Source: Candidatus Moranbacteria bacterium RIFCSPLOWO2_12_FULL_48_12
GTDB taxonomy: Bacteria > Patescibacteriota > Minisyncoccia > Moranbacterales > UBA1568
DNA length: 40,791 bases
Direction: 5' to 3'
Assembly: GCA_001784735.1 (NCBI GenBank)
Contig: MFSB01000008.1
Span: 1 to 40,791, forward strand
Shown here: piece by piece, positions 10,851 through 27,270 of the stretch
Position numbering within the stretch: the first letter of the stretch is position 1
How the letters are laid out: every line of letters starts with the position of its first letter
Translations under genes and position numbers: made by a program
The notes under the pieces: model-generated
The model's database searches: none
What the model was told of the DNA's origin: nothing
Seen by the model: the letters and a program-made list of their open reading frames with translations, nothing else

Positions 10851-12209
10851 TTAGGAGTGTATCTTCTCCAGCGACTTGAATGTGGTGGAGTTTTCCTCGA
10901 AATACAACTGCACTTTGCCGATGGGGCCGTTTCTGTGTTTGGCGACGATGATATCGGCGATGTTCTTGTTCGGGGTATCCGGCTTGACGCGATCTTCCCG
11001 GTAGAGGAACATCACCACGTCGGCATCCTGTTCGATCGAACCGGATTCGCGCAAATCGGAGAGCCGCGGTATCTGATCCGGACGGGATTCCACGGCTCGA
11101 GATAATTGCGAGAGGGCCATTATCGGGATATTTAATTCGCGAGCCAATTGTTTCAATCCGCGGGAAATTTCTGAGATTTCCTGGACGCGATTATCGCTTT
11201 GCCGGTTGCTGCGGCCTTCCATCAGCTGGAGATAGTCGACGATGATGAGCCCCAGATTGTGCTCGGCCTGGAGACGTCTGGCCATCGTCCGCATTTCCAT
11301 GATATTGAGCGAGCCCGAGTCATCGATGAAAATAGGGGCTTCAGAAAGGACGCCCATAGCGTCAGAAATACGCTCAAAGTCGTTATTCGAGCCTTCGCTT
11401 GAGAGTTTGCCGGTTCGCAAGCGCCAGAGGTCGACGCCGGCTTGGGCGGCGATCATCCGATCCACGAGCTGATCCGAGGACATTTCCAGAGAGAATATCC
11501 CCACCGGTACCTTGGAGTGAACGCCGATCTGCCGGGCGATGTCGAGGGCGAGGGCAGTTTTGCCCACCGATGGGCGGGCGGCCAGGATAAGGAGATCGGA
11601 TTTCTGGAGCCCGGCCAAGAGATTGTCGATATCCGGGAAAAAAGTCTGAACGCCGCGGAAGGCGTGATCGCTCTTGTGCAGTTCATCGATGCGGTTGAAA
11701 GCAATTTCGAGAATGGATTTGATGGGGACAAAATCCTGCTTGATATATTTTTGGGAAACGGCAAAGACTTTCTGTTCAGCTTCGTCAAGGATTTTTTGGA
11801 CGTCTTCGGATTCATCATAGCCCATTTCGACGATATCGCTCGCGGCGCTGATGAGGCGGCGGAGCAGGACTTTTTTCTGGACCACTTTGGCATAGTGGAC
11901 GACGTTCGAAGCGGAAGGAACAGAATTGACCAGCGAGGCGAGGTAGTTCGATCCGCCCACTTTTTCCAGCTGGCTCTGTTCTTCCAGCTTGTTGGCCAGC
12001 GACAAGACGTCGATCGGCTCGCGGTCTTCGTAGAGGGCGAGCATCGTTTCGTAAATCACGTTGTGGTCGTCTTTGTAGAAGTCACCCACTTTGAGCAGAT
12101 CGGCGATTTTGATGACAGCATCTTTGTCCAGCATCAAAGAGCCGAGCACCGAAGTTTCAGCTTCGAGATTATGCGGGGGAACGCGGAGATGATCGGTGGC
12201 TTTGGCCAT
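10851..12209 (-). CDS. dnaB: Replicative DNA helicase DnaB
   Basis: 452 aa. N-terminal PPHNLEAETSVLGSLML, Walker A ARPSVGKTALALD, and the IIVDYLQLM and SQLSRAVE blocks. Confidence 0.97.
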   Translation of the reverse strand: MAKATDHLRVPPHNLEAETSVLGSLMLDKDAVIKIADLLKVGDFYKDDHNVIYETMLALYEDREPIDVLSLANKLEEQSQLEKVGGSNYLASLVNSVPSASNVVHYAKVVQKKVLLRRLISAASDIVEMGYDESEDVQKILDEAEQKVFAVSQKYIKQDFVPIKSILEIAFNRIDELHKSDHAFRGVQTFFPDIDNLLAGLQKSDLLILAARPSVGKTALALDIARQIGVHSKVPVGIFSLEMSSDQLVDRMIAAQAGVDLWRLRTGKLSSEGSNNDFERISDAMGVLSEAPIFIDDSGSLNIMEMRTMARRLQAEHNLGLIIVDYLQLMEGRSNRQSDNRVQEISEISRGLKQLARELNIPIMALSQLSRAVESRPDQIPRLSDLRESGSIEQDADVVMFLYREDRVKPDTPNKNIADIIVAKHRNGPIGKVQLYFEENSTTFKSLEKIHS

Positions 12210-15261: not shown

Positions 15262-15284
15262 GTCAACTTAGATCGTTTGTATTT

Positions 15285-15314
15285 TGTCATTCCCGCGAAG
15301 GCGGGAATCCAGGA
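15285..15314. repeat. TGTCATTCCCGC-GAAG-GCGGGAATCCAGGA hairpin repeat
   Basis: Same family as 35268..35296 and 35319..35348 (GTCATTCC..GGAATCCAG). Confidence 0.65.
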
Positions 15315-15486
15315 TTTCAGATTAGTGATTTTGTAATATATTTAGTTGGATTCAGTGTTGGAATCTATTAAAAGAGTCTAGAGAAGAATACAGACTTTCT
15401 GAATAGATTCTAACCAGTCCGTTAACAATCAGTCAGTTGGTATGATTGTGACGGTTTTTTGTCTTTTTTATGATGGAGGAACGAAG

Positions 15487-15651
15487 ATGACGAAGAAAGT
15501 TCAGAAAAGAATGCCGCCGGTGGAAGAAGCTTTCGCTGGCATTGAAAATTGGCCGCCCAGGCATGTCCACACAAGGGGCGTCCGTACGTCACTGAGAACT
15601 GGGATCGTTTCCGCGAAAAAGATTTCTCCATCAACCGCAGTCAGGAAATAG
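15487..15651 (+). CDS. Small ORF s1 (54 aa), SD-led
   Basis: GGAGGA lies 6 nt upstream of ATG 15487. The N-terminal half looks protein-like and the C-terminal half is R/S/T-rich. An alternative frame (15549..15896) competes with it. Confidence 0.35.
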   Translation: MTKKVQKRMPPVEEAFAGIENWPPRHVHTRGVRTSLRTGIVSAKKISPSTAVRK

Positions 15652-15661
15652 GGAGGAGCTC

Positions 15662-15862
15662 ATGCCAGATACAAAGCGCGGACCACGTGCTCCAAACGGA
15701 CGAGTTGTTTGTCTGGTGTTTCTCTCGATTGTTGCTGAAAAGGGAGAAAGCCAGCTTGGTTCAGACGGAAAGCTTCGCAGAATCACAGTGCAGGTGGCAA
15801 GACAAATGCATTATCGCGTGGGTAAGTGTTGCGACGAGCGTTGTAGGAGGAAGTGCCAATGA
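15662..15862 (+). CDS. Small ORF s2 (66 aa) with C-terminal Cys cluster GKCCDERCRRKCQ
   Basis: GGGAGGAG overlaps the s1 stop and lies a few nt upstream of ATG 15662. The stop overlaps the s3 start (ATGA). Confidence 0.45.
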   Translation: MPDTKRGPRAPNGRVVCLVFLSIVAEKGESQLGSDGKLRRITVQVARQMHYRVGKCCDERCRRKCQ

Positions 15863-16053
15863 CTCAAACAGCGACCGGAACAGCAAGGGCCGTTAAGCAG
15901 GTTCCTTGTAAACAGATCCCTCAATTTTCTTCAGTTTCGGAATCCGTTGCCATTGCCAAGTTTTGGCAGGTGATAGCAGGAAAAAATTCCGCGGAGCGAA
16001 AAGTCTGCAGGGATTGCGAATATTGCCCTTTTAAAACGGGGCATCCGATTTAA
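15859..16053 (+). CDS. Small ORF s3 (64 aa) with C-terminal CRDCEYC motif
   Basis: AGGAGG (15845..15850) lies 8 nt upstream of ATG 15859. ATGA overlap with s2. Confidence 0.45.
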   Translation: MTQTATGTARAVKQVPCKQIPQFSSVSESVAIAKFWQVIAGKNSAERKVCRDCEYCPFKTGHPI

Positions 16054-18808: not shown

Positions 18809-20767
18809 ATGGCAAAGATACTCGGCATAGACTTGGGGACAACCAACTCCGCGATGGCGTTCGTGGAAGGCGGGACTCCCAACATCATCGAGAACAAGGA
18901 AGGCAATCGTACCACACCGTCGATGGTGGCGATATCGAAAACCGGCGAGCGTCTGGTGGGCTTACTCGCCAAGCGCCAGGGTGTTACCAATCCAGAGAAT
19001 ACACTGTTTTCCGTGAAGCGCCTCATCGGGCGGCATTTCAACGACGAGGAAGTCCAGCGCGACAAGAAAACGCTTCCCTACAAGATTCTTCAGGCCGGCG
19101 AAGGCGTGAAGATCGTGATGGGTGGCAAGGAATACACGCCGCAGGAAGCTTCTGCGATGATTCTCGGCAAACTGAAGGCCGACGCAGAAGAGAAGCTGGG
19201 TGAGAAGATCACCGACGCGGTCATTACCGTACCGGCCTATTTCGACGACTCCCAGCGCAAGGCCACCAAAGAAGCGGGTGAAATCGCCGGATTCAACGTG
19301 CGTCGCATCATCAACGAACCGACGGCCGCCGCTCTGGCCTACGGTTTCAACAAGAAGAAAGATGAGAAAATTGCAGTTTATGATCTGGGTGGCGGAACGT
19401 TCGATATTTCCATCTTGGAAGTAGCCGAAGACACGGTCGAAGTGAAGTCGACCAACGGGGATACGCACTTGGGCGGTGATGACTTCGACCAGCGGATCAT
19501 CCACTGGATACTCGATGAATTCAAGAAACAGGAAGGGATCGATTTGAGCAAAGATCCACTGGCGCTCCAACGCATCAAGGAATCTGCCGAGAAAGCCAAG
19601 ATCGAACTCTCGACTGCCAACGAAACGGAAATCAATCAGCCATTCATCACCGCGGATGCCAACGGGCCGAAGCACTTGCTTATCAAGATGTCGCGGGCCA
19701 AGTTGGAAGAGCTGGTAGGCGATCTGGTCGAGGCGACATTTGGCCCAGTGAAAAAAGCCCTGGCCGATGCGAAACTGGATGTGAAAGATATCCATGAGAT
19801 CGTCTTGGTCGGCGGGATGACTCGTATGCCGCTGGTTCTTTCCAGCGTAGAAAAATTCTTCGGCAAGAAAGCCAATATTACCGTCAATCCGGATGAGGTG
19901 GTGGCGCTTGGTGCCGCTATCCAGGGCGGGGTACTGGAAGGTTCTGTGAAAGATGTGCTTCTCTTGGACGTGACGCCGCTCACATTCGGTATCGAGACTT
20001 TGGGAGGCGTGCGGACGCCGCTTATCGATCGCAATACGACGGTACCTGTATCTCGCTCTCAGGTATTTTCCACTGCCGCTGATAATCAACCATCGGTGCA
20101 GATCCACGTACTCCAGGGTGAGCGTGAGATGGCCTCTGACAATAAATCTCTTGGTCAATTCATCTTAGACGGCATTCCACCATCGCCGCGCGGTATCCCG
20201 CAGGTGGAGGTGACGTTTGACATCGATGCTTCGGGAATTCTTTCTGTGACGGCCAAAGATAAGGCGACGAATAAATCCCAATCTATCCGTATCGAATCAT
20301 CCACCGGACTTTCCAAAGATGAGATCGAGCGGATGAAGAAGGATGCCGAGATGCACGCCGATGAGGACAAGCGCAAGAAAGAACTCATCGAAGCGCGCAA
20401 TATGGCCGACAGCCTTTCCTACACGACCGAGAAGTCGATGAAAGATGCCGGTGACAAGTTGACCGCTGATGAGAAGAAGCCGGTGGAGGAAGCCATCACT
20501 GAGCTCAACAAAGTGAAGAACGGCGATGACTTGGAAGCTATCAAGAAGGCCACCGAGAATCTCTCCACCGCCGCACAAAAGATTGGTGAGAAACTCTATA
20601 AAGCGGCTCAAGAAGCCGAGAAGACCAAAGCAGGCGAAACTAAGCCAGCCGATGGCAATACTGGTACTGCCGAAGCCCCGAAAGAGGCCGAAACAGAGCC
20701 TGCTTCGGCTTCAGACGAGCCGGCTAAACCTGAAGGTGATAAACCAGCAGACGAGCCGAAAAAGTAA
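18809..20767 (+). CDS. dnaK: Molecular chaperone DnaK (Hsp70)
   Basis: [22 protein letters not shown].., [22 protein letters not shown]. 652 aa. Confidence 0.98.
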
Positions 20768-20778
20768 GGAGTATATTA

Positions 20779-20808
20779 AGAGCGGAGGTTTTCCTCCGCT
20801 CTTATTTG
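20779..20808 (+). terminator. Rho-independent terminator after dnaK
   Basis: AGAGCGGAGG-TTTT-CCTCCGCTCT (10-bp stem) followed by TATTTG. Confidence 0.85.
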
Positions 20809-20819
20809 AAAATAATTAT

Positions 20820-21386
20820 ATGAAAATGATTCCTTCCGTCACAAATCGTGAACTTGATGAAACTTTTATTTATCAGGGACTATCATGGCAACCAAGAATT
20901 ACATCAAGGGGAGATCTGGGTATCACTGGACCATTTTGCAAGAGATGTAACGTAAGTTTAGCAGGTGGTGTGGTTAAATGTTGGAACTGTAATGCCGATT
21001 ACTCAAAAATTTTAGATAGCGACTTAGTGGAACTTCGAAGTAAAGCTCATAAGATATATGAAGCGAATGCTCGTTCAAAATACCCAGTTATAAACTTTGA
21101 CATCCCACCAACATCACTTAGTCATAGTACAACTGAGGACGAGAATTTTTTTGTGGGATATAAATTTGGGCAAGAAAAGGGTAGAAAACAATTACACATT
21201 TGGGTTGGTGAGAGGAAAAAAGATCAAAGTAATAAGGATAAAGTTCAATTAGTTATTGATGTTGATAAAGAAGAGTTCAGACATGACCAAACTAATAAAT
21301 TTCCTGGTGAAATAATTGCTAACGCCAAGATTGTTTTCAAAAAATCCAGTACAGATATAAACTATGAAAAAATAGTTGAAGGATGA
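20820..21386 (+). CDS. Hypothetical zinc-ribbon protein (188 aa), AT-rich
   Basis: ATG 20820 lies after the dnaK terminator. The longer track ORF from 20526 overlaps dnaK in another frame. Motif CKRC-x11-CWNC. Visibly more AT-rich than the flanking genes. Confidence 0.6.
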   Translation: MKMIPSVTNRELDETFIYQGLSWQPRITSRGDLGITGPFCKRCNVSLAGGVVKCWNCNADYSKILDSDLVELRSKAHKIYEANARSKYPVINFDIPPTSLSHSTTEDENFFVGYKFGQEKGRKQLHIWVGERKKDQSNKDKVQLVIDVDKEEFRHDQTNKFPGEIIANAKIVFKKSSTDINYEKIVEG

Positions 21387-21398
21387 AATATTTTATCT

Positions 21399-21437
21399 AA
21401 AAATGAAGCGGCCCTGGCAGAATGTTTCCCGCCAGGG
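21399..21437. repeat. 39-nt hairpin repeat AAAAATG(A/C)AGCGG(C/T)CCTGGCAGAATGTTTCCCGCCAGGG, copy 1
   Basis: Second copy at 22994..23032. Hairpin CC(C/T)TGGC..GCCAGGG. Lies between convergent ORFs, so it is terminator-like. Confidence 0.7.
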
Positions 21438-21497
21438 CTTTGTTCATTTGTAGACCTCCTATAGAAAAAACGCGGTTAAATTTGCTTGTGGTCGGCG

Positions 21498-21905: not shown

Positions 21906-22232
21906 TTTTCCCTCTATTGTTAAGGTGGTTGTTGCGTATCGGAATAAAATGTAACACTTCATTGCAACAAACCATTATACTCTTATTCATCGGTTTTGTC
22001 AATGTGAATGATGTAATAATGCTTTGAATAAAGCATTATTGATGATATGTTAAAATACTTAAGTATTCGCATGAAAGCGGTGATTGTTTTTAGTATCTAA
22101 ATCTATGAAAGTCGTGTTGATGCATGGGAAGGATACGGATTCGAGCCGGAAAAGAAAATGGGTCAGGTACATTTTTTATAAAAAAATGATTAGAAAGCCA
22201 GAAAAGGGGGCAGGTACAATTACTTAAATACT

Positions 22233-22301
22233 ATGGTTTGGACGGACGAGCAGATAGCAAATCATAGGGAAGTGGTGGATGTTCTGGAGGGGATAGAGTG
22301 A
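22233..22301 (+). pseudogene. Fragment A: duplicated 5' end of the M24 peptidase gene (22 codons then stop)
   Basis: MVWTDEQIANHREVVDVLEGIE* compared with MVWTDEQIKNHKEVVDVLEGIV.. of the intact gene at 26530. About 55 of 66 nt are identical by hand alignment. Confidence 0.75.
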
Positions 22302-22326
22302 TCAGTATTTTTATACAATAAAAGTT

Positions 22327-22851
22327 ATGTTGACACCAGAACAAGAAGAGTGGCTGGCGCATCTTTCGGACACCGGAACAGTCAAGATCGTACCATTTGA
22401 CCCGACCACGGAGGAGAAATTTGAAAGAGTGAAAAAGAAAATCCAGGGTCATTTTGGAGCGGATGTTGCTGTCGAGCATTATGGCGCCTCGAGTCTCGGC
22501 ATATCAGGTCAAGACGAAATTGATGTGTACGTGCCAGTTCCAGAGGCGAAATTCAATGAAACTGTCGAAGCGCTTCGGAAACTTTTTGGTGAGCCCAGAA
22601 GCACTTATCCTCTGAAAAGAGTCAGGTTCGTGGCGGAAGAACAAGGCAAGCATGTCGATATTTTTGTCATCAACAAAGAACATGAGAGCTGGAGTAAGCT
22701 TGTCCAATTCCAGCATATTCTAAAAACAAATCCTGAAGTATTGGAATCCTACCGAAAATTGAAGGAAGAAGGGGATGGATTGAATATTCGAGAATACTAT
22801 AGACGAAAACTAATTTTCATCAACCGAGCAATACATAAAAAGAGTCGTTAA
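22327..22851 (+). CDS. GrpB-like nucleotidyltransferase-fold protein
   Basis: HYGASSLGISGQDEIDVYV matches the GrpB pattern H.GSTS.PG...KP.IDI.V. The C-terminal FQHILKTNPEVLESYRKLK matches FRD.L...P.....Y..LK. Confidence 0.75.
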   Translation: MLTPEQEEWLAHLSDTGTVKIVPFDPTTEEKFERVKKKIQGHFGADVAVEHYGASSLGISGQDEIDVYVPVPEAKFNETVEALRKLFGEPRSTYPLKRVRFVAEEQGKHVDIFVINKEHESWSKLVQFQHILKTNPEVLESYRKLKEEGDGLNIREYYRRKLIFINRAIHKKSR

Positions 22852-22871
22852 AAATTTTACGATTGCAAAAT

Positions 22872-22955
22872 ATGCTTTGGACGGATGAACAGATAAAGAA
22901 TCATAAGGAGATGGCGGATGTTTTGGAGGGGATTGTCCGAGAATTTTTTTGTTAA
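22872..22955 (+). pseudogene. Fragment B: duplicated 5' end of the M24 peptidase gene (27 codons then stop), truncated at a REP hairpin
   Basis: MLWTDEQIKNHKEMADVLEGIVREFFC*. About 60 of the first 66 nt are identical to 26530... The stop is immediately followed by REP copy 1. Confidence 0.8.
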
Positions 22956-22976
22956 TTTGGAAGCCTTGCTTCCAAA
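22956..22976. repeat. REP hairpin copy 1 (TTTGGAAGC-CTT-GCTTCCAAA)
   Basis: 9-bp perfect stem with a 3-nt loop. Confidence 0.9.
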
Positions 22977-22993
22977 ATCTTCTAAATGGTTAA

Positions 22994-23032
22994 AAAAATG
23001 CAGCGGTCCTGGCAGAATGTTTCCCGCCAGGG
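22994..23032. repeat. 39-nt hairpin repeat, copy 2 (see 21399..21437)
   Basis: AAAAATGCAGCGGTCCTGGCAGAATGTTTCCCGCCAGGG. Lies downstream of the minus-strand ORF 23118..23780. Confidence 0.7.
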
Positions 23033-23117
23033 CCTGTTTCTCCTCCTTTTGTCGTTGATTGATACTATCCGAGAAAATCGTATTTCTTATAGGAAGGTCA
23101 AGTCCTCAGACACCCGA

Positions 23118-23780
23118 TCAGAGCAGCGCTGTGATGGTAGCGTCTGAAATGCACTTTTCCCATGCTTTCCGGCATGAGGGAAGCACAGTTTTCGGGATAA
23201 TGAAACGCCTGAGTCTTTTTTGCACTTCATCGGATGGCACGGAACGATTCCTGGCCAGCCACTTCGCTACCCGTTTGGGGATGGTGATCCGGGTAGTTTC
23301 GAAGTCTGGCCAGCATGGGATGCTGGTCGTCTCCTTCACGGTAACCAGAATAACGGACCACCGAGAATGCCAGATTTTTGGCGTGCCTTCCAAGTTGTAG
23401 AGAAAGCTATCCCGCTCCAAGAAAAGCTCGATTTGCCTATCGCTATCCACAAGGACTGTCCGGCTCTCCACCGTGTGTGGCGGCGTAATGCTGTCGACTT
23501 CCCGTACCATGTCACGGTAGCGCAAAGGCATCACTTTTTTGGTATATGTGAGAGAGGGCACGACGGTAAGCAAGTGCCTGAAAACATCCAGGTAGTAGAA
23601 TGCTACGGCCTTTGCGGTCGCCTCCCCGAAGTCATACTGGTTAGTTCTGGCTTCACTTCTGCGGCTATTTTTCACGGTTCGATCTCCTGTAAAAGGACGA
23701 AGCAGATCCGGGTGAACCGGCATCTGGTTACTTCGATGAAGTAACGGCTCATTATAGGTCGAGAGAGTAATAAATGTCAA
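23118..23780 (-). CDS. Hypothetical protein (about 200-220 aa)
   Basis: Longest ORF in a segment where both strands are open. The track start is TTG 23780 and the first ATG is at 23723 (MPVHPDLL..). No family recognised. Confidence 0.5.
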   Translation of the reverse strand: MTFITLSTYNEPLLHRSNQMPVHPDLLRPFTGDRTVKNSRRSEARTNQYDFGEATAKAVAFYYLDVFRHLLTVVPSLTYTKKVMPLRYRDMVREVDSITPPHTVESRTVLVDSDRQIELFLERDSFLYNLEGTPKIWHSRWSVILVTVKETTSIPCWPDFETTRITIPKRVAKWLARNRSVPSDEVQKRLRRFIIPKTVLPSCRKAWEKCISDATITALL

Positions 23781-23800
23781 CCATGAATCTGGTGATGTAA

Positions 23801-23821
23801 TTTGGAAGCCTTGCTTCTAAA
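23801..23821. repeat. REP hairpin copy 2 (one mismatch: ..GCTTCTAAA)
   Basis: TTTGGAAGCCTTGCTTCTAAA. Confidence 0.85.
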
Positions 23822-23915
23822 TTTACTTCAAGCAGGGAATTAGCCGCTCTTTGCATATCCTCTGGCATATTCTATACTTGGGGCAGGAGCTTTAAGCATT
23901 AATTTATAAAAGTCT

Positions 23916-24863
23916 ATGGGATTTTTTCAAACCGTAAAAAAGAGCGTCTATGATGTCGCTTTCTACGCCACCGCCAAGACGGAGAGTTTCTCGGTAGCGC
24001 TCAAGCAGTACACTTTGTTTATCTTGTGCGTGGCGGTCGTCATCTCGATTCCTCTGTATATAGCTTTCGGAGTGTGGCATTCTCAGGTCAAAGAAATGGG
24101 CGATATCCGCGCCAAGGTGTTGGCCGTGTATCCGGATGAGCTTGTGCTTACTTTCCAAAATGGTCAGATGGCTTCCAATGTCGAGGAGCCATACAGCATC
24201 CCGATGCCAGCGGAATTTGATGTGAAAACTCCGAAGAATCTCGTCGTTATCAATACCCGCGGATCCATCACGCTCAATGATTTCGAGCGTTACGATACCC
24301 TCGCCATCCTCGGAGGCGATGCTGTCTGGACGCACGACCCGCAAAAAGACAAAATCGAAATTCAGAAATTCGATCAATTTAGCAAAGCCTCTTTTGTCTT
24401 GAATGAGCAGAAACTCACGGAATGGGTAGATCTCGCCTTCAAAGTCGGAAGAATTGTTGTCATTATCCTGCTTATTTTCATGCCGGCGTTTATCTTCGTC
24501 TTTCTCTGGGTCGGGTATCTTGTCTATCTCCTCTTCGGAGCGTTTGTCATCTGGCTTATGGCGAAACTGCGCAAAGTTGACTGTACTTACGGCCAGTCTT
24601 ACAAGCTCGGTCTCTATCTCCTCACCCTCCCGATTCTCTATAGCGTTCTGACCACCGGTCCGCTTTCGATGTTCCATATCCCCTTCGGCTTCACCCTCAT
24701 ACTTGCCGTCCTCGCCTACGCCAATCTCGGCCCAATAAAAACAGTCAAAACAACTTCTGTTTCTCCTGCACCAAACAATATGCCCGTTTCAGCCAAAGGC
24801 TCTGAGTCAGTCGAAGGGATAAAAGTTGGAGATAGTGAATCCAATAAAGATGGGAAGTTGTAA
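23916..24863 (+). CDS. Multi-pass membrane protein, DUF1189-like
   Basis: N-terminal MGFFQTVKKSVYDVAFY and several hydrophobic helices. The family assignment is from memory of the DUF1189 N-terminal pattern and is unverified. Confidence 0.6.
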   Translation: MGFFQTVKKSVYDVAFYATAKTESFSVALKQYTLFILCVAVVISIPLYIAFGVWHSQVKEMGDIRAKVLAVYPDELVLTFQNGQMASNVEEPYSIPMPAEFDVKTPKNLVVINTRGSITLNDFERYDTLAILGGDAVWTHDPQKDKIEIQKFDQFSKASFVLNEQKLTEWVDLAFKVGRIVVIILLIFMPAFIFVFLWVGYLVYLLFGAFVIWLMAKLRKVDCTYGQSYKLGLYLLTLPILYSVLTTGPLSMFHIPFGFTLILAVLAYANLGPIKTVKTTSVSPAPNNMPVSAKGSESVEGIKVGDSESNKDGKL

Positions 24864-24894
24864 AAAATCATACTGACTGGGGTAAATAAGAGAA

Positions 24895-24915
24895 TTTGGA
24901 AGCAAGGCTTCCAAA
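24895..24915. repeat. REP hairpin copy 3 (TTTGGAAGC-AAG-GCTTCCAAA)
   Basis: Perfect copy, opposite loop orientation to copies 1, 2 and 4. Confidence 0.9.
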
Positions 24916-24951
24916 CTTTTAGATAGCAGAATGGCGTAAAGAAAGAAATAT

Positions 24952-25633
24952 ATGCCTATAAATCCAAATTATAATCTTGATAAAATAAAGTTTTCACTCG
25001 ATGAGGGAACATGGCAACGCGCCACTATACTTTATTACCAAACGAAGTGAGCGAAACGAAAGTTTACTTTCGTTTCCGAGCGCAGTGCCGGTAAAATCGG
25101 GTTGAATACCCCGCGGCTTGCCGCGGATATGAAACGAGCTTAAGCTCGTTTCAGGGTCCAGGGCTTGCCCTGGGGTAAATACCTGTTATGAGAAACACAA
25201 GGTAACAAAGTTTGAATCAGATTCGTATGGATTTTCAGCGGTTGTGTTTGGCAGCCGTGTGTATAAAGTACGTGTGTCGACGCGTCGTTTTGACGAAGGA
25301 GATTGTGAATGTTATCTCGGACAAAATGATGAATTATGCAAGCATATGGTAGCAGTCGCTATTTATGCTATACTTGGCGGAAGACCGCTATTGGAGGAAG
25401 AAAAGCAACAAAAAAATGATATATCTTTAACATGGTTCATTTATCAGAATTCACTAAGTGAGGACTGTAGTCGTCTTGCCGCTACTGTTTCCGAGCTTCC
25501 GGTAAGTTTGCAAACAGCCGAGCTTTTGGTTGATCTTCTCTTAAGGATGGATAAAAAACTTTGTACAGGCGGCGTTGATGATTCAGATGGAGTTGTTGGC
25601 GGTTGTATGGAGGAAATCGTGGGGGTTACTTGA
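24952..25633 (+). pseudogene. SWIM zinc-finger protein gene interrupted by a hairpin array
   Basis: A 32-codon N-terminal piece (24952..25050, ..EGTWQRATILYYQTK*) is followed by about 125-145 nt of hairpins. The rest lies in another frame (open from about 25133; track ORF 25244..25633) and carries the SWIM motif CECYLGQNDELCKH. Confidence 0.6.
25053..25173. repeat. Array of four consecutive hairpins
   Basis: GAAACGAAAGT-TT-ACTTTCGTTTC (25053..25076); CCGCGG-CTTG-CCGCGG (25111..25126); the palindrome GAAACGAGCTTAAGCTCGTTTC (25131..25152); CCAGGG-CTTG-CCCTGG (25158..25173). Confidence 0.85.
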
Positions 25634-25751
25634 AGAGTTTTCCAAAGCTGATTCGAGGTGTATTGTTGTATTTTGTAAGCTTTTTGAAATAGAAACCTGT
25701 TTTGGATGGGAAAAACCGCTTGTTGCAATTGCCAAGCGTGCAAGAACATGA

Positions 25752-25772
25752 TTTGGAAGCCTTGCTTCCAAA
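25752..25772. repeat. REP hairpin copy 4 (CTT loop)
   Basis: TTTGGAAGCCTTGCTTCCAAA, 37 nt upstream of the transposase ORF. Confidence 0.9.
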
Positions 25773-25808
25773 TGGTAGAATAGTAGAGAAGTATTAAGTA
25801 TAAAAATC

Positions 25809-26483
25809 GTGTCAATAAGAAAAATTAATTTCGCAAGTGGCGAATTTTATCATATTTACAATAGGGGAACCGACAAGCGGAACATCTTTTCCGATTTGGC
25901 AGATCAAGAGCGCTTTATTCAGAGTATGAAAGAATTCAATGCGCTCAATCCGATTGGCAGTATTTATGAACATTGCCGTTCTCAATTTGGAAGCAAGGCT
26001 TCCAAAAATGGTAAAAAGGACAAAAGGCTTGTAAATATAGTGGCTTATTGCCTGAATCCAAATCACTACCATTTTATATTGGAACAGGTTTCAGAAAAAG
26101 GCATAGAGAAATTTATGCAAAGGCTTGGTACGGGATATAGCAAATACTTCAATAACAAACACGAGAGATCTGGTGGACTATTTGAGGGAAAATTTCAAGC
26201 AGTACATATCGACTCAAACGAATATCTTCTGCATGCGAGTGTTTATGTCAATCTCAACGACCGTGTTCATGGATTTGGAAGCAAGGCTTCCAAATCTTTA
26301 GGGAAGATGTTGATTAAGAGCAGATCCAGTTGGGATGAGTATATGGGAAATGCTAAAGAAGGGTTTTGTACAAAAGACAATATTCTTGGTCAATTTAAAA
26401 ATGTTAAAGAATACAAAACTTACGCGGGAAATGTGCTGGTAGGTATACATGAAAGAAAATTTTTAGCACAAGAGAAATTTTAA
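25809..26483 (+). CDS. IS200/IS605-type Y1 (HUH) transposase, REP-associated tyrosine transposase (RAYT)-like
   Basis: FYHIYNRGTDKRNIF, HUH motif NPNHYHFIL, LFEGKF, and Tyr motif ASVYVNLN. Flanked by REP hairpins and containing two more. Confidence 0.82.
   Translation: MSIRKINFASGEFYHIYNRGTDKRNIFSDLADQERFIQSMKEFNALNPIGSIYEHCRSQFGSKASKNGKKDKRLVNIVAYCLNPNHYHFILEQVSEKGIEKFMQRLGTGYSKYFNNKHERSGGLFEGKFQAVHIDSNEYLLHASVYVNLNDRVHGFGSKASKSLGKMLIKSRSSWDEYMGNAKEGFCTKDNILGQFKNVKEYKTYAGNVLVGIHERKFLAQEKF
25986..26006. repeat. REP hairpin copy 5, in frame inside the transposase ORF (encodes FGSKASK)
   Basis: Starts exactly at codon 60 of ORF 25809..26483. Confidence 0.9.
26274..26294. repeat. REP hairpin copy 6, in frame inside the transposase ORF (encodes FGSKASK)
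   Basis: Starts exactly at codon 156, the same phase as copy 5. Confidence 0.9.
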
Positions 26484-26488
26484 AGTTA

Positions 26489-26509
26489 TTTGGAAGCAAG
26501 GCTTCCAAA
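26489..26509. repeat. REP hairpin copy 7
   Basis: Lies 5 nt after the transposase stop and 20 nt before ATG 26530 of the peptidase gene. Confidence 0.9.
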
Positions 26510-26529
26510 ATCTATTTCAATTGAAATAT

Positions 26530-27270
26530 ATGGTGTGGACGGATGAGCAGATAAAGAATCACAAGGAGGTGGTGGATGTTTTGGAGGGGATTGTCCAGGA
26601 GGTCTTTTTGTTTATATCAAAAGAGAAAATTGTCACGGAAAGAAGTATCCAGAAGTTTATTCTGAGGAAGTATTCAGAGTATGACCTCAAATCTTGTATG
26701 GGTTTGCCGATAGTGGCGTTTAATGAACACTCGGCACAGCCGCACTATGCCATTGGCAAGAAATCAAAAGTTTTGAAGCCAAATACTTTGATTCTCATCG
26801 ATATTTGGGCGCGGTTTAAGAAAAGGAACTACCCGTACGCGGATATTACCTGGATGGCCTATTATGGAAAATCATTGCCTATCAAAATACAGCGGGCATT
26901 CGATACGGTATTGAAGTCGAGGGATGCCGCCCTCAGATTTATTAAAAGTCATGCGAAGAAGGGAAAGTTACCGAAAGGACAGGCAGTCAATGAAAAAGCC
27001 AATGCTATAATATATAAAGCGGGATATGGGAAGCATATTCTCCATTCGATTGGCCATTCTATCGGATTTCGCTCGCCCCATGGTGCCGACAAGAATCTTA
27101 ATAAGAAAGGCGACGAGCCTTTGAAACTCAGTCTCGGTTACACAATCGAACCCGGCATTTACATTGCCAATGAATTCGGCATCCGCAGCGAGATCGACTT
27201 TTATGTCGATGAAACAATGAAACTGCACATCACCACCGGCCTCCAAAAGAAAATGGTTTTTATAAGGTAA
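26530..27270 (+). CDS. M24-family metallopeptidase (Xaa-Pro/methionine aminopeptidase-like pita-bread domain only)
   Basis: LILIDIWA, YADITWM, HSIGHSIG and GYTIEPGIY..GIRSEIDF match the M24 metal-ligand blocks. The start is taken at ATG 26530 (MVWTDEQ). Confidence 0.82.
   Translation: MVWTDEQIKNHKEVVDVLEGIVQEVFLFISKEKIVTERSIQKFILRKYSEYDLKSCMGLPIVAFNEHSAQPHYAIGKKSKVLKPNTLILIDIWARFKKRNYPYADITWMAYYGKSLPIKIQRAFDTVLKSRDAALRFIKSHAKKGKLPKGQAVNEKANAIIYKAGYGKHILHSIGHSIGFRSPHGADKNLNKKGDEPLKLSLGYTIEPGIYIANEFGIRSEIDFYVDETMKLHITTGLQKKMVFIR

Follow-up and report, generated by a model that had tools for sequence, protein, structure and literature searches.

The closest described relatives of the locus reported here pair a transposase gene with a family of repetitive extragenic palindromes (REPs). 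Such systems, in which the enzyme is a REP-associated tyrosine transposase (RAYT), include E. coli TnpA-REP (YafM) with its REPs and bacterial interspersed mosaic elements (BIMEs; PDB 4ER8; Messing et al. 2012, PMC3479197) and the 'REPtrons' (Nunvar et al. 2010, PMC2817692), and a GTAG (or CGTC) tetranucleotide at its end marks the REP (Di Nocera 2013, PMC3733652; Messing 2012, PMC3479197). In the REPIN-RAYT systems of Pseudomonas, each RAYT has its own repeat family, is inherited vertically and persists for long periods (Bertels & Rainey 2011, PMC3337134, PMC3116915), and REPs that lie within genes have been described from other bacteria (Di Nocera et al. 2013, PMC3733652). Here we analyze a 40,791-nt stretch of the genome of Candidatus Moranbacteria bacterium RIFCSPLOWO2_12_FULL_48_12 (contig MFSB01000008.1), an ultra-small bacterium of the Patescibacteria; the whole stretch is referred to as the window. 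Within it, a RAYT-like gene of the Y1/HUH class carries two copies of a 21-nt palindrome in its own open reading frame (ORF) and one further copy on either side. The locus is a variant of the REP/RAYT system, and REP/RAYT systems and intragenic REPs as such are already known. What appear to be new are the presence of the cognate repeat at conserved places inside the coding sequence of the enzyme itself, its concerted evolution with the flanking copies, which can be read in one cassette, a promoter built into the repeat, and the occurrence of the whole arrangement in a large Patescibacteria family. We found no description of REPs inside a RAYT ORF in PMC2817692, PMC3337134, or PMC3733652 with its supplements, and no paper on RAYTs linked to such repeats in Patescibacteria; as literature coverage was incomplete, both are absence of evidence only. 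In-gene copies are not mentioned in PMC3337134 or PMC3116915, and the intragenic-REP list of PMC3733652 holds no transposase gene.

The two in-gene segments, which both encode the peptide FGSKASK, are translated copies of the gene's own cognate dispersed palindromic REP. They are present family-wide and lie in predicted disordered loops of variable length, and some constraint or process at the DNA level keeps them matched to the flanking copies. In the window, the gene and the elements in and around it are arranged as follows:

25752..25772, minus strand: upstream flanking REP; loop CTT on the plus strand; 37 nt before the start codon; overlaps the -35 element and spacer of the promoter-like site
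25753..25781, plus strand: promoter-like site TTGGAA-17 nt-TAGAAT with an extended -10 TG (TGGTAGAAT); the -35 element, spacer and TG are REP sequence
25809..26483, plus strand: RAYT-like Y1/HUH tyrosine transposase gene; 224 aa, GTG start; HUH motif H86-Y-H88, catalytic tyrosine Y146
25986..26006, plus strand: in-gene REP, site 1; exact match; codons 60-66, FGSKASK; 9-bp stem, loop AAG as codon 63
26274..26294, plus strand: in-gene REP, site 2; exact match; codons 156-162, FGSKASK; loop AAG as codon 159
26489..26509, plus strand: downstream flanking REP; loop AAG; 5 nt past the stop codon and 12 nt before the M24 peptidase gene

The 21-mer, TTTGGAAGCAAGGCTTCCAAA, is a perfect palindrome with a 9-bp stem and a 3-nt loop, and it is free of stop codons in all six frames, as can be read directly from its letters. 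Seven copies are present in the window (six exact, one with a single mismatch; span 22956-26509), all inside 3.6 kb of the 40.8 kb and each at most 2.9 kb from the RAYT-like gene; dinucleotide-preserving shuffles gave 0 matches. As single-stranded DNA (ssDNA) the copies fold into hairpins of 9-11 bp (-8.4 to -10.8 kcal/mol, z -3.9 to -5.5). The site 1 copy has a value of -8.4 kcal/mol (z -5.2), and that at site 2, where the stem reaches 11 bp (26272-26296), -10.8 kcal/mol (z -5.5). The original prediction, made from the letters of this DNA, had placed two in-frame FGSKASK copies of the same phase and orientation at codons 60 and 156, one ahead of the HUH block and one just after the catalytic tyrosine. 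Both placements proved exact: each copy starts at the first base of a codon (TTT GGA AGC AAG GCT TCC AAA), the first between the conserved PIGSIYE stretch and the HUH strand (LVNIVAYCLNPNHYH) and the second after the catalytic-tyrosine helix (SVYVNLNDRVHG).

The same design recurs across a large family. Database searches returned 3686 relatives of the protein, of 206-265 aa and from Patescibacteria wherever an organism is named, and a wider profile search yielded 937 clusters at 50% identity (E <= 1e-30). Hairpin occupancy was scored in 81 genes re-called from the DNA of 79 Patescibacteria loci (species-level genomes) plus the window, and all 81 genes are intact. In the typical cassette, the first hairpin lies 10-55 nt (typically ~24 nt) before the start codon, site 1 falls between PIGSIYE and LVNxxAYCLNPNHYH, site 2 between YVNLNxRVH and SSWxEY, and the fourth hairpin follows directly on the stop codon. 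The conserved cassette reads REP (with the -35 element, spacer and TG of the putative promoter), N-terminal part, REP, HUH to Tyr core, REP, C-terminal part, REP. One or both in-gene sites hold a hairpin in 73/81 genes (both in 31, site 1 only in 25, site 2 only in 17, neither in 8), which amounts to 56 genes for site 1 and 48 for site 2; the upstream hairpin is found in 75/81 and the downstream one in ~66/81. The general form of the family hairpin is (CAC)CAACTTGG-nnnn-loop-nnnn-CCAAGTTG(GTG), with a conserved outer stem and a genome-specific inner stem. Since the stems are perfect palindromes, orientation is defined by the loop only, and that of the flanking copies varies between genomes.

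The original prediction had asked whether the two heptapeptides are lineage-specific insertions and had named ancestral protein sequence as what would refute it; neither view fits the homologues. At 47-86% identity, these have peptides encoded by hairpins in each of the two places. All of the aligned homologues show a peptide of the kind [LF]-G-x-x-x-[SP]-K at each site, and the narrower pattern [LF]-G-[GS]-x-[AT]-[SP]-K recurs at the two sites in most homologues, which is not what a lineage-specific insertion would give. Ordinary protein ancestry is contradicted by the fact that each gene has its own palindrome, which matches its own flanking hairpins and differs between genomes by compensatory stem changes. 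Within a protein, the variable residues match between the sites (GSEASK/GSEASK, GNPTSK/GNPTSK, GGRTPK/GGPTPK). Genes without the site 2 hairpin have a short non-palindromic linker in its stead (e.g. xxxEFR-SSW or EGMNKEWMKELPF), and as hairpin presence and absence are also scattered over a midpoint-rooted neighbor-joining (NJ) distance tree, the in-gene hairpins are dispensable for the protein. From the same distance-based, midpoint-rooted tree, there would seem to be a clade whose hairpins are confined to the flanks and whose site 2 holds an 'xxxFR' linker. The history of the in-gene hairpins may have been one of ancient insertion followed by many losses, or of recurrent insertion. Some of the loci also contain more distant Y1 paralogues (80-144 bits) that follow this design but have unrelated hairpins, placed upstream, downstream and in the ORF, so an ORF-embedded cognate hairpin is not confined to one subfamily; a few metagenome-assembled genomes (MAGs) have two divergent paralogues. 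In three loci (L031, L050, L051), the downstream REP is located inside the C-terminal tail.

Several individual cases were recorded during this survey. The paralogue at L006:7313-7973 has 17-bp stems upstream and at site 1, and similar paralogues are found at L014:6389-7052, L045 (minus strand, 11397-12072 of the reverse-complemented locus) and L077:3266-3932; that of L041 (minus strand, 15279-15972 of the reverse-complemented locus) has a hairpin in the loop after the HUH strand. P0365, a 164-aa database homologue and natural variant, is ~45 residues shorter in the stretch from the HUH motif to the Tyr helix (…NPNHIH|SNQYLLHLSAYI…) and retains the site 2 hairpin peptide LGHRMSK; its deletion is not bounded by REPs. 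About eight related contigs end within 310 nt of the gene, L006 exactly at the upstream hairpin (contigs ending near the gene: L005, L006, L009, L021, L024, L025, L058, L070 and L078). Short-read assemblies are probably broken by the palindromes or by their repetition, and the recovery of the cassette in MAGs could be biased as a result.

Within a gene the copies stay alike while the hairpin turns over between genomes. The inner five stem nucleotides are identical in 72% of within-gene hairpin pairs versus 3.5% of between-gene pairs, and for site 1 versus site 2 the inner stem is 90% identical, a level reached by 0/10000 permutations. An independent replicate that used protein sequences only gave the same picture: 72/97 database homologues share at least 6/7 residues between the sites, compared with 18% when partners are shuffled, and among 133 more diverse full-length representatives an internal repeat between the sites was detected in 17, and in 0 after shuffling. 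The two arms of the hairpin also covary. Across 85 in-gene hairpins, 89.5% of cells are paired, with 207 double-sided changes versus 58 in shuffles, and the covariation score is 0.542 versus 0.194 in shuffles (0/500 reach it) and at most 0.144 in slid-partner controls. Each of the four inner stem pairs occurs in three or four Watson-Crick types, with zero one-sided (G-U type) changes. Because G-U pairs are essentially absent, this signature points to constraint on a DNA palindrome rather than on an RNA helix, and a structure maintained at the RNA level is disfavored.

The coding consequences of the palindrome are visible in the peptides. The loop triplet is exactly one codon in 85/87 hairpins with a 3-nt loop, so that the peptide is encoded by successive pairs of codons that are reverse complements of each other (L/K, G/[SPTA], etc.). 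Loops are often reverse complements of each other between the sites of one gene (TCG/CGA in L055, CGG/CCG in L006, AAG/CTT in the near relative L146; also in L014), and single-residue S/R, R/P and K/L differences between sites arise because loops flip. Where the flip of a loop is a stop codon (TCA, TTA), the in-gene copies are always in the sense orientation; flanking copies may have TGA or TAA. Some genes, among them those in L010, L007, L013, L033 and L053, contain two hairpin types each. In L010, the upstream hairpin and site 2 share one type and site 1 and the downstream hairpin another, and such mixtures imply wholesale replacement rather than gradual drift. In-gene stems are often longer (up to 18 bp) than those of the flanking copies, reaching 16-18 bp by way of neighboring codons, as in GCG CAC CAA CTT GG...CC AAG TTG GTG CGC, which encodes AHQLG...KLVR. 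The REP stems of the window and of its relatives L144 and L146 are identical despite saturated synonymous sites elsewhere in the gene. The seven in-gene codons are thus set by the DNA palindrome and not by protein function. As a separate observation, site 1 of L069 and of L077 holds a translated inverted doublet, REPIN-like, with palindromes of 17-24 bp.

The protein matched Pfam PF01797 (Y1_Tnp, IS200/IS605 TnpA-like) over residues 70-147 with 29.4 bits versus a gathering cut-off of 23, and H86, H88, Y146 and N150, four residues past Y146, are among the residues invariant across 32 homologues. A sequence-profile search of the PDB found no match, and a fold search was needed. An AlphaFold2 model built on 32 homologues (predicted template modeling score 0.74) had as its best Foldseek match in the PDB 4er8_A, in which the E. 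coli RAYT is complexed with a REP hairpin (E 1.9e-4, probability 1.00), followed by the IS608 and ISDra2 TnpA chains. The identification of the gene as a Y1/HUH transposase homologue, made in the original prediction, was thus upheld, and the repeat, there presumed to be its substrate, behaves like the gene's cognate REP. At its C terminus the protein has an additional region in which the motif SSWxEY is conserved. Since it scores 30.1 bits with NCBIfam NF047646 (REP_Tyr_transpos, the RAYT equivalog) and does not reach the cut-off of 80, it is a distinct subfamily that works like a RAYT but is non-canonical. In the model, predicted local distance difference test values fall below 50 only at residues 1-4, 55-70 and 155-166, and the in-gene sites lie in the last two of these segments, both of which are variable-length regions of the homologue alignment. 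This agrees with the earlier suggestion that self-targeting is tolerated in surface loops.

Comparison with relatives at 75-79% identity gave a dN of 0.09-0.12, synonymous sites that are saturated (pS, the proportion of synonymous differences, 0.73-0.92) and a dN/dS of at most about 0.04, which places the protein under strong purifying selection. In such relatives (L144, L146) the gene stands directly after dnaK and a hypothetical gene, from which synteny vertical inheritance can be argued. In the relative L148 it lies beside M24 peptidase and CutA1 genes, and GrpB or CutA1 adjoins it in relatives; a RAYT directly beside GrpB or M24 was likewise seen among them. A Pfam scan of neighboring ORFs identified GrpB, DUF1189, SWIM and M24 genes, with no transposase-type domain in the ORFs scanned and no tnpB evident beside the gene. 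As it is single-copy and syntenic, the gene looks domesticated. The fold match, the invariant catalytic residues, the dN/dS and the synteny together show that it is functional, vertically inherited and RAYT-like, and neither decaying nor an actively hopping insertion sequence.

Beyond the cassette, the window contains three dispersed copies:

22956..22976, minus strand: dispersed REP, intergenic; after the GrpB gene and a duplicated M24 gene fragment
23801..23821, minus strand: dispersed REP with one mismatch (TTTAGAAGC...), intergenic
24895..24915, plus strand: dispersed REP; 32 nt past the stop codon of the DUF1189 gene

In metagenomes the exact 21-mer was found at 64 loci, in 79 copies with 54 distinct flank contexts, and a RAYT homologue is present in only 3 or 4 of the 64. 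One copy is located on L143, a contig that adjoins the window, and REP density in the 20-kb flanks is low. The flanks of the 54 distinct copies have in common only an A at -1 and a T at +1, which extend the palindrome; beyond these, no GTAG/CGTC tag, target-site duplication or target motif was seen around them. Some of the metagenome copies are read in frame within protein domains recognized by Pfam, namely those of MiaA, RNase HII, TsaD and a CAP-domain protein. The original prediction had proposed looking for FGSKASK in other genes, and it does occur there, as FGSKASKF in RNase HII, with the other codon phase used in MiaA (NLEALLPN) and TsaD (NLEARLPN); the two phases thus read FGSKASK and N/RLEA[RL]LPN. 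TsaD of a related organism has at the same site a flipped loop, read as NLEALLPK. Comparison with solved structures confirmed the insertions: RNase HII has 23 residues where 3o3g has 3, and TsaD has 9 extra residues relative to 8iey. Extra cognate copies, beyond the four canonical positions, number 1.35 per 10 kb at 0.1-1 kb from the gene, 0.50 at 1-3 kb, 0.24 at 3-6 kb and 0.03 at 6-10 kb, a ~45-fold fall in density with distance. The metagenome contigs on which intragenic exact 21-mers were noted are L088, L095, L097, L102, L103, L126 and L138.

Other candidate identities for the repeat were rejected. The irregular spacings (845, 1094, 857, 234, 288 and 215 nt) and the position of copies in and between ordinary genes rule out a CRISPR-like array. 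A terminator scan flags some copies as intrinsic terminators, but they have no T-tract, lie in ORFs and upstream of genes, and have gene-specific stems. Rfam at gathering thresholds matches only two tRNAs in the window, which leaves no known RNA family for the repeat.

The upstream copy overlaps the putative promoter of the gene. In the window it would supply the -35 element, the spacer and the extended -10 TG, and across the family a TGnTAnnAT-like element stands at a fixed offset past the upstream hairpin, modally 12 nt after the loop. The ATG typically follows ~24 nt after that loop, which implies a very short or absent leader. That this element functions as a promoter is suggested at the level of the consensus, and since the upstream copy overlaps it, autoregulation of the gene is plausible.

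Taken together, these data lead us to favor a reading in which the peptides are passengers and the repeats are driven at the DNA level, to which we assign a probability of roughly 60%. By analogy with E. coli TnpA-REP and IS608 TnpA, the enzyme would bind and process its hairpins on ssDNA. New copies would be deposited mostly near the enzyme's own gene, and because deposition is mostly local, its own ORF would be the most exposed target. An insertion could survive because the repeat is seven codons long and stop-free, and it would do so only in permissive loops, as in the loops of other housekeeping genes. Once in place, the in-gene copies would be homogenized with the flanking REPs by DNA-level copying, either through template switching at hairpins or through enzyme-catalyzed hairpin replacement, and the same process could flip loops and extend the palindrome into adjacent codons. 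Feedback on expression would be a possible by-product and not the cause of the copies.

Several points weigh against this proposal. The putative link between enzyme and hairpin is one of co-location, co-variation and predicted fold. Two ancient insertions would account for the constant codon phase and the near-constant positions better than repeated insertion would, and a bombardment biased toward the gene in cis need not be invoked for them. With only the 6-8 bp of conserved outer stem to serve as homology, gene conversion by ordinary homologous recombination is unlikely. Covariation alone is no proof of selection on structure, because hairpin-templated mutation can itself yield perfect palindromy. 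Finally, the persistence of the hairpins past synonymous saturation, the longer in-gene stems and the promoter in the upstream REP also fit a selected regulatory role.

Such a role is the substance of a possible though doubtful alternative, in which the in-gene hairpins are selected cis-regulatory sites. The enzyme would bind the promoter REP and the internal REPs extruded on single-stranded or supercoiled DNA, or possibly on mRNA, and exert negative feedback through them as auxiliary operators, roadblocks or attenuators, so that all four sites must track its specificity. The contribution of the upstream REP to the promoter-like site in the window, the fixed offset of that site across the family, and the common sequence of all four hairpins of a gene speak for this account, as do the conservation of the in-gene hairpins despite synonymous saturation and the greater length that their stems often have over those of the flanking copies. 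There is also a precedent, since IS200 tnpA is held down by hairpins in its leader. However, the 8/81 genes without an in-gene hairpin and the 42/81 with only one, scattered over the tree, show that the in-gene sites can be dispensed with, and the same REP also occurs in unrelated housekeeping genes, for which a role of this kind would not be anticipated. With G-U pairs absent, a constraint on RNA is disfavored, and conversion from flanking copies could maintain the in-gene copies without selection.

A bolder proposal, which we consider unlikely, joins the two ideas and treats the cassette as a self-referential unit of control and copying. The HUH enzyme would sense and limit its own expression through the promoter and in-ORF REPs, and would catalyze hairpin-for-hairpin replacement on ssDNA, a site-specific form of gene conversion that keeps all its cognate sites, those in its own gene among them, in step as its specificity shifts. 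The REP-encoded loops may even contact the hairpin, so that site and reader change together.

That the peptides are themselves the functional unit, two conserved L/F-G-x-x-x-S-K loops needed by the protein (e.g. for DNA contact) with palindromy and the likeness to nearby repeats both secondary, is highly improbable. The recurrence of the pattern at both sites in most homologues and the constant codon phase are in keeping with it, and the loops may become ordered on DNA binding. Yet the residues vary widely (GGSAS, GHRMS, SRRTS, GNPVS, RPLGS) and always as reverse-complement codon pairs, identical DNA lies outside the ORF on either side of each gene, many functional-looking homologues lack one or both peptides, and other proteins tolerate the same DNA in other frames. 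The third-codon positions of the stem are, moreover, frozen while synonymous sites elsewhere are saturated.

It is hardly credible that the gene is heading to inactivation, whether by self-targeting decay, the first step of which had been among the explanations raised for the in-gene copies, or by a REP-to-REP deletion switch that removes the catalytic core. The two copies are same-phase direct repeats, and a deletion between them (288 nt, 96 codons) would stay in frame. However, the dN/dS, the invariance of the HUH motif, the tyrosine and many other residues, and the intact state of all 81 genes stand against decay, and a database search with an artificial deletion product found no natural REP-to-REP deletion variant, only full-length proteins bar an 87-aa fragment (P0311) and P0365, in which the deletion is not REP-bounded. 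Although palindromes can confuse de Bruijn assemblers and some related contigs do end close to the gene, an assembly or chimera artefact can be dismissed almost entirely, since the same protein is recorded on 32 and 17 contigs, the architecture recurs in independent NCBI, JGI, ENA and Logan assemblies and in 79 species-level genomes, and the reading frame and the homologous protein alignment continue through both copies.

Further features were noted around the dispersed copies in the window. The M24 peptidase gene (26521-27270) has its 5' leader and first ~27 codons duplicated at 82% identity directly before the REP at 22956 (22850-22950 versus 26508-26608, with a weaker third match at 22211-22311), and the duplicate ends in a premature stop. 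It lies on the far side of a 3.5-kb block, from REP 22956 to REP 26489, that holds four genes including the RAYT-like gene, and looks like a REP-associated rearrangement or a segmental insertion. A second repeat family of 47 nt (89% identical; 21399-21445 and 22994-23040), with a hairpin of its own (CCCTGGC...GCCAGGG), has one copy after the stop codon of ORF 20526-21386 and the other 18 nt past the REP at 22956. This family may represent either terminator-like elements or a further small mobile palindrome. A sigma-70 consensus without mismatch (TTGACA-18 nt-TATAAT, 12/12; 23751-23780, minus strand), situated just inside the REP at 23801, coincides with the annotated TTG start of ORF 23118-23780 (minus strand), and the real start of this unannotated ORF, which has no Pfam hit, is probably further downstream. 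The overlapping ORFs 23904-24677 (minus strand) and 23916-24863 (plus strand) were resolved in favor of the plus-strand DUF1189 gene. Between that gene and a SWIM-domain ORF, four consecutive short hairpins (gaaacgaaag..ctttcgtttc, ccgcgg..ccgcgg, gaaacgagc..gctcgtttc and ccaggg..ccctgg) occupy 25030-25190, a 79-nt part of which matches metagenome contig L085:11157-11235 at 93.7%. No Rfam family scored above threshold in this stretch, which may be an unannotated small RNA.

The cassette provides a compact natural record of enzyme-site co-evolution, since the presumed recognition hairpin of each gene can be read there in as many as four copies over 0.8 kb. Patescibacteria have gene-dense genomes, and in these selfish palindromes add short peptide segments to proteins, including the essential TsaD, RNase HII and MiaA, and this bears on annotation, on profile models and on how 'lineage-specific insertions' are read. 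The steep fall-off of copies with distance is evidence for local deposition of a kind rare for REP systems, and the repeat-embedded promoter provides a directly testable model of autoregulation for a RAYT. HUH enzymes serve as sequence-specific tags for coupling proteins to ssDNA, and the family could supply many orthogonal enzyme-hairpin pairs whose substrates are readable from the gene.

How the hairpins change can be compared with quasipalindrome template-switch mutagenesis, studied by Ripley and by Lovett and co-workers, in which a change in one arm is copied to the other at the DNA level. The features expected of such copying, namely perfect palindromes, double-sided changes that pass through no G-T intermediate, inverted loops and growing stems, are all present in these data. 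On its own it leaves the shared inner stem of the four copies unexplained, for which copying between sites is needed.

Palindromes inside genes have a counterpart in the Rickettsia palindromic elements (RPEs), which Ogata and colleagues reportedly described in 2000 as selfish DNA in protein-coding genes of Rickettsia. Like these and like intragenic REPs, the repeat described here is an in-frame, translated, loop-tolerated palindrome in housekeeping genes (RNase HII, TsaD, MiaA and the CAP-domain protein). Unlike them, it is 21 nt long (seven codons) and stop-free in six frames, its host gene encodes the presumed mobilizing enzyme, and the sites that it occupies, conserved throughout a large family, show concerted evolution with flanking copies. 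RPEs proper are elements of 100-150 bp from Rickettsia, whereas the present repeat is of 21 nt and from Patescibacteria, so the resemblance is functional only.

The IS200/IS605 TnpA proteins (IS608, ISDra2; PDB 2A6O, 2VJV, 2XM3) share the Y1/HUH fold and a gene bracketed by hairpins that are expected to be recognized on ssDNA. Their insertion occurs without target-site duplication, and none was seen here. In contrast to IS200/IS605, the present gene is not a multicopy insertion sequence, as its position is syntenic in relatives, whereas IS200/IS605 elements have several near-identical copies per genome; their frequent partner tnpB is not evident beside it. The same perfect palindrome stands at both ends in place of distinct, imperfect and subterminal left-end and right-end hairpins, and the protein has the additional C-terminal region with SSWxEY.

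With REP/RAYT systems the locus shares a single-copy Y1/HUH gene that stands between two short palindromic repeats of one sequence. This repeat also appears to be dispersed, the structure that best matches the predicted fold is 4er8, the hairpin is gene-specific and the repeats cluster near the gene. The present locus differs from canonical RAYTs in that the NF047646 model is unmatched and the REPs are perfect palindromes without a GTAG/CGTC tag. It differs, too, in carrying repeats in the enzyme's own ORF, in one or two conserved loops and sometimes in the C-terminal tail, in the promoter built into the upstream REP, in its Patescibacteria host and in copy numbers that appear low. With the REPIN-RAYTs of Pseudomonas it shares a repeat family of its own for each gene, vertical inheritance, long persistence and inverted doublets, which here are found in site 1 of L069 and L077. 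The long 'a-palindrome-a^c' palindromes of the Pseudomonas REPIN papers compare with the extension of stems into neighboring codons. Whereas those REPINs are doublets of ~90 nt, the hairpins here are mostly singlets of 19-39 nt, and the co-evolution of enzyme and repeat can be read in a single 0.7-kb cassette.

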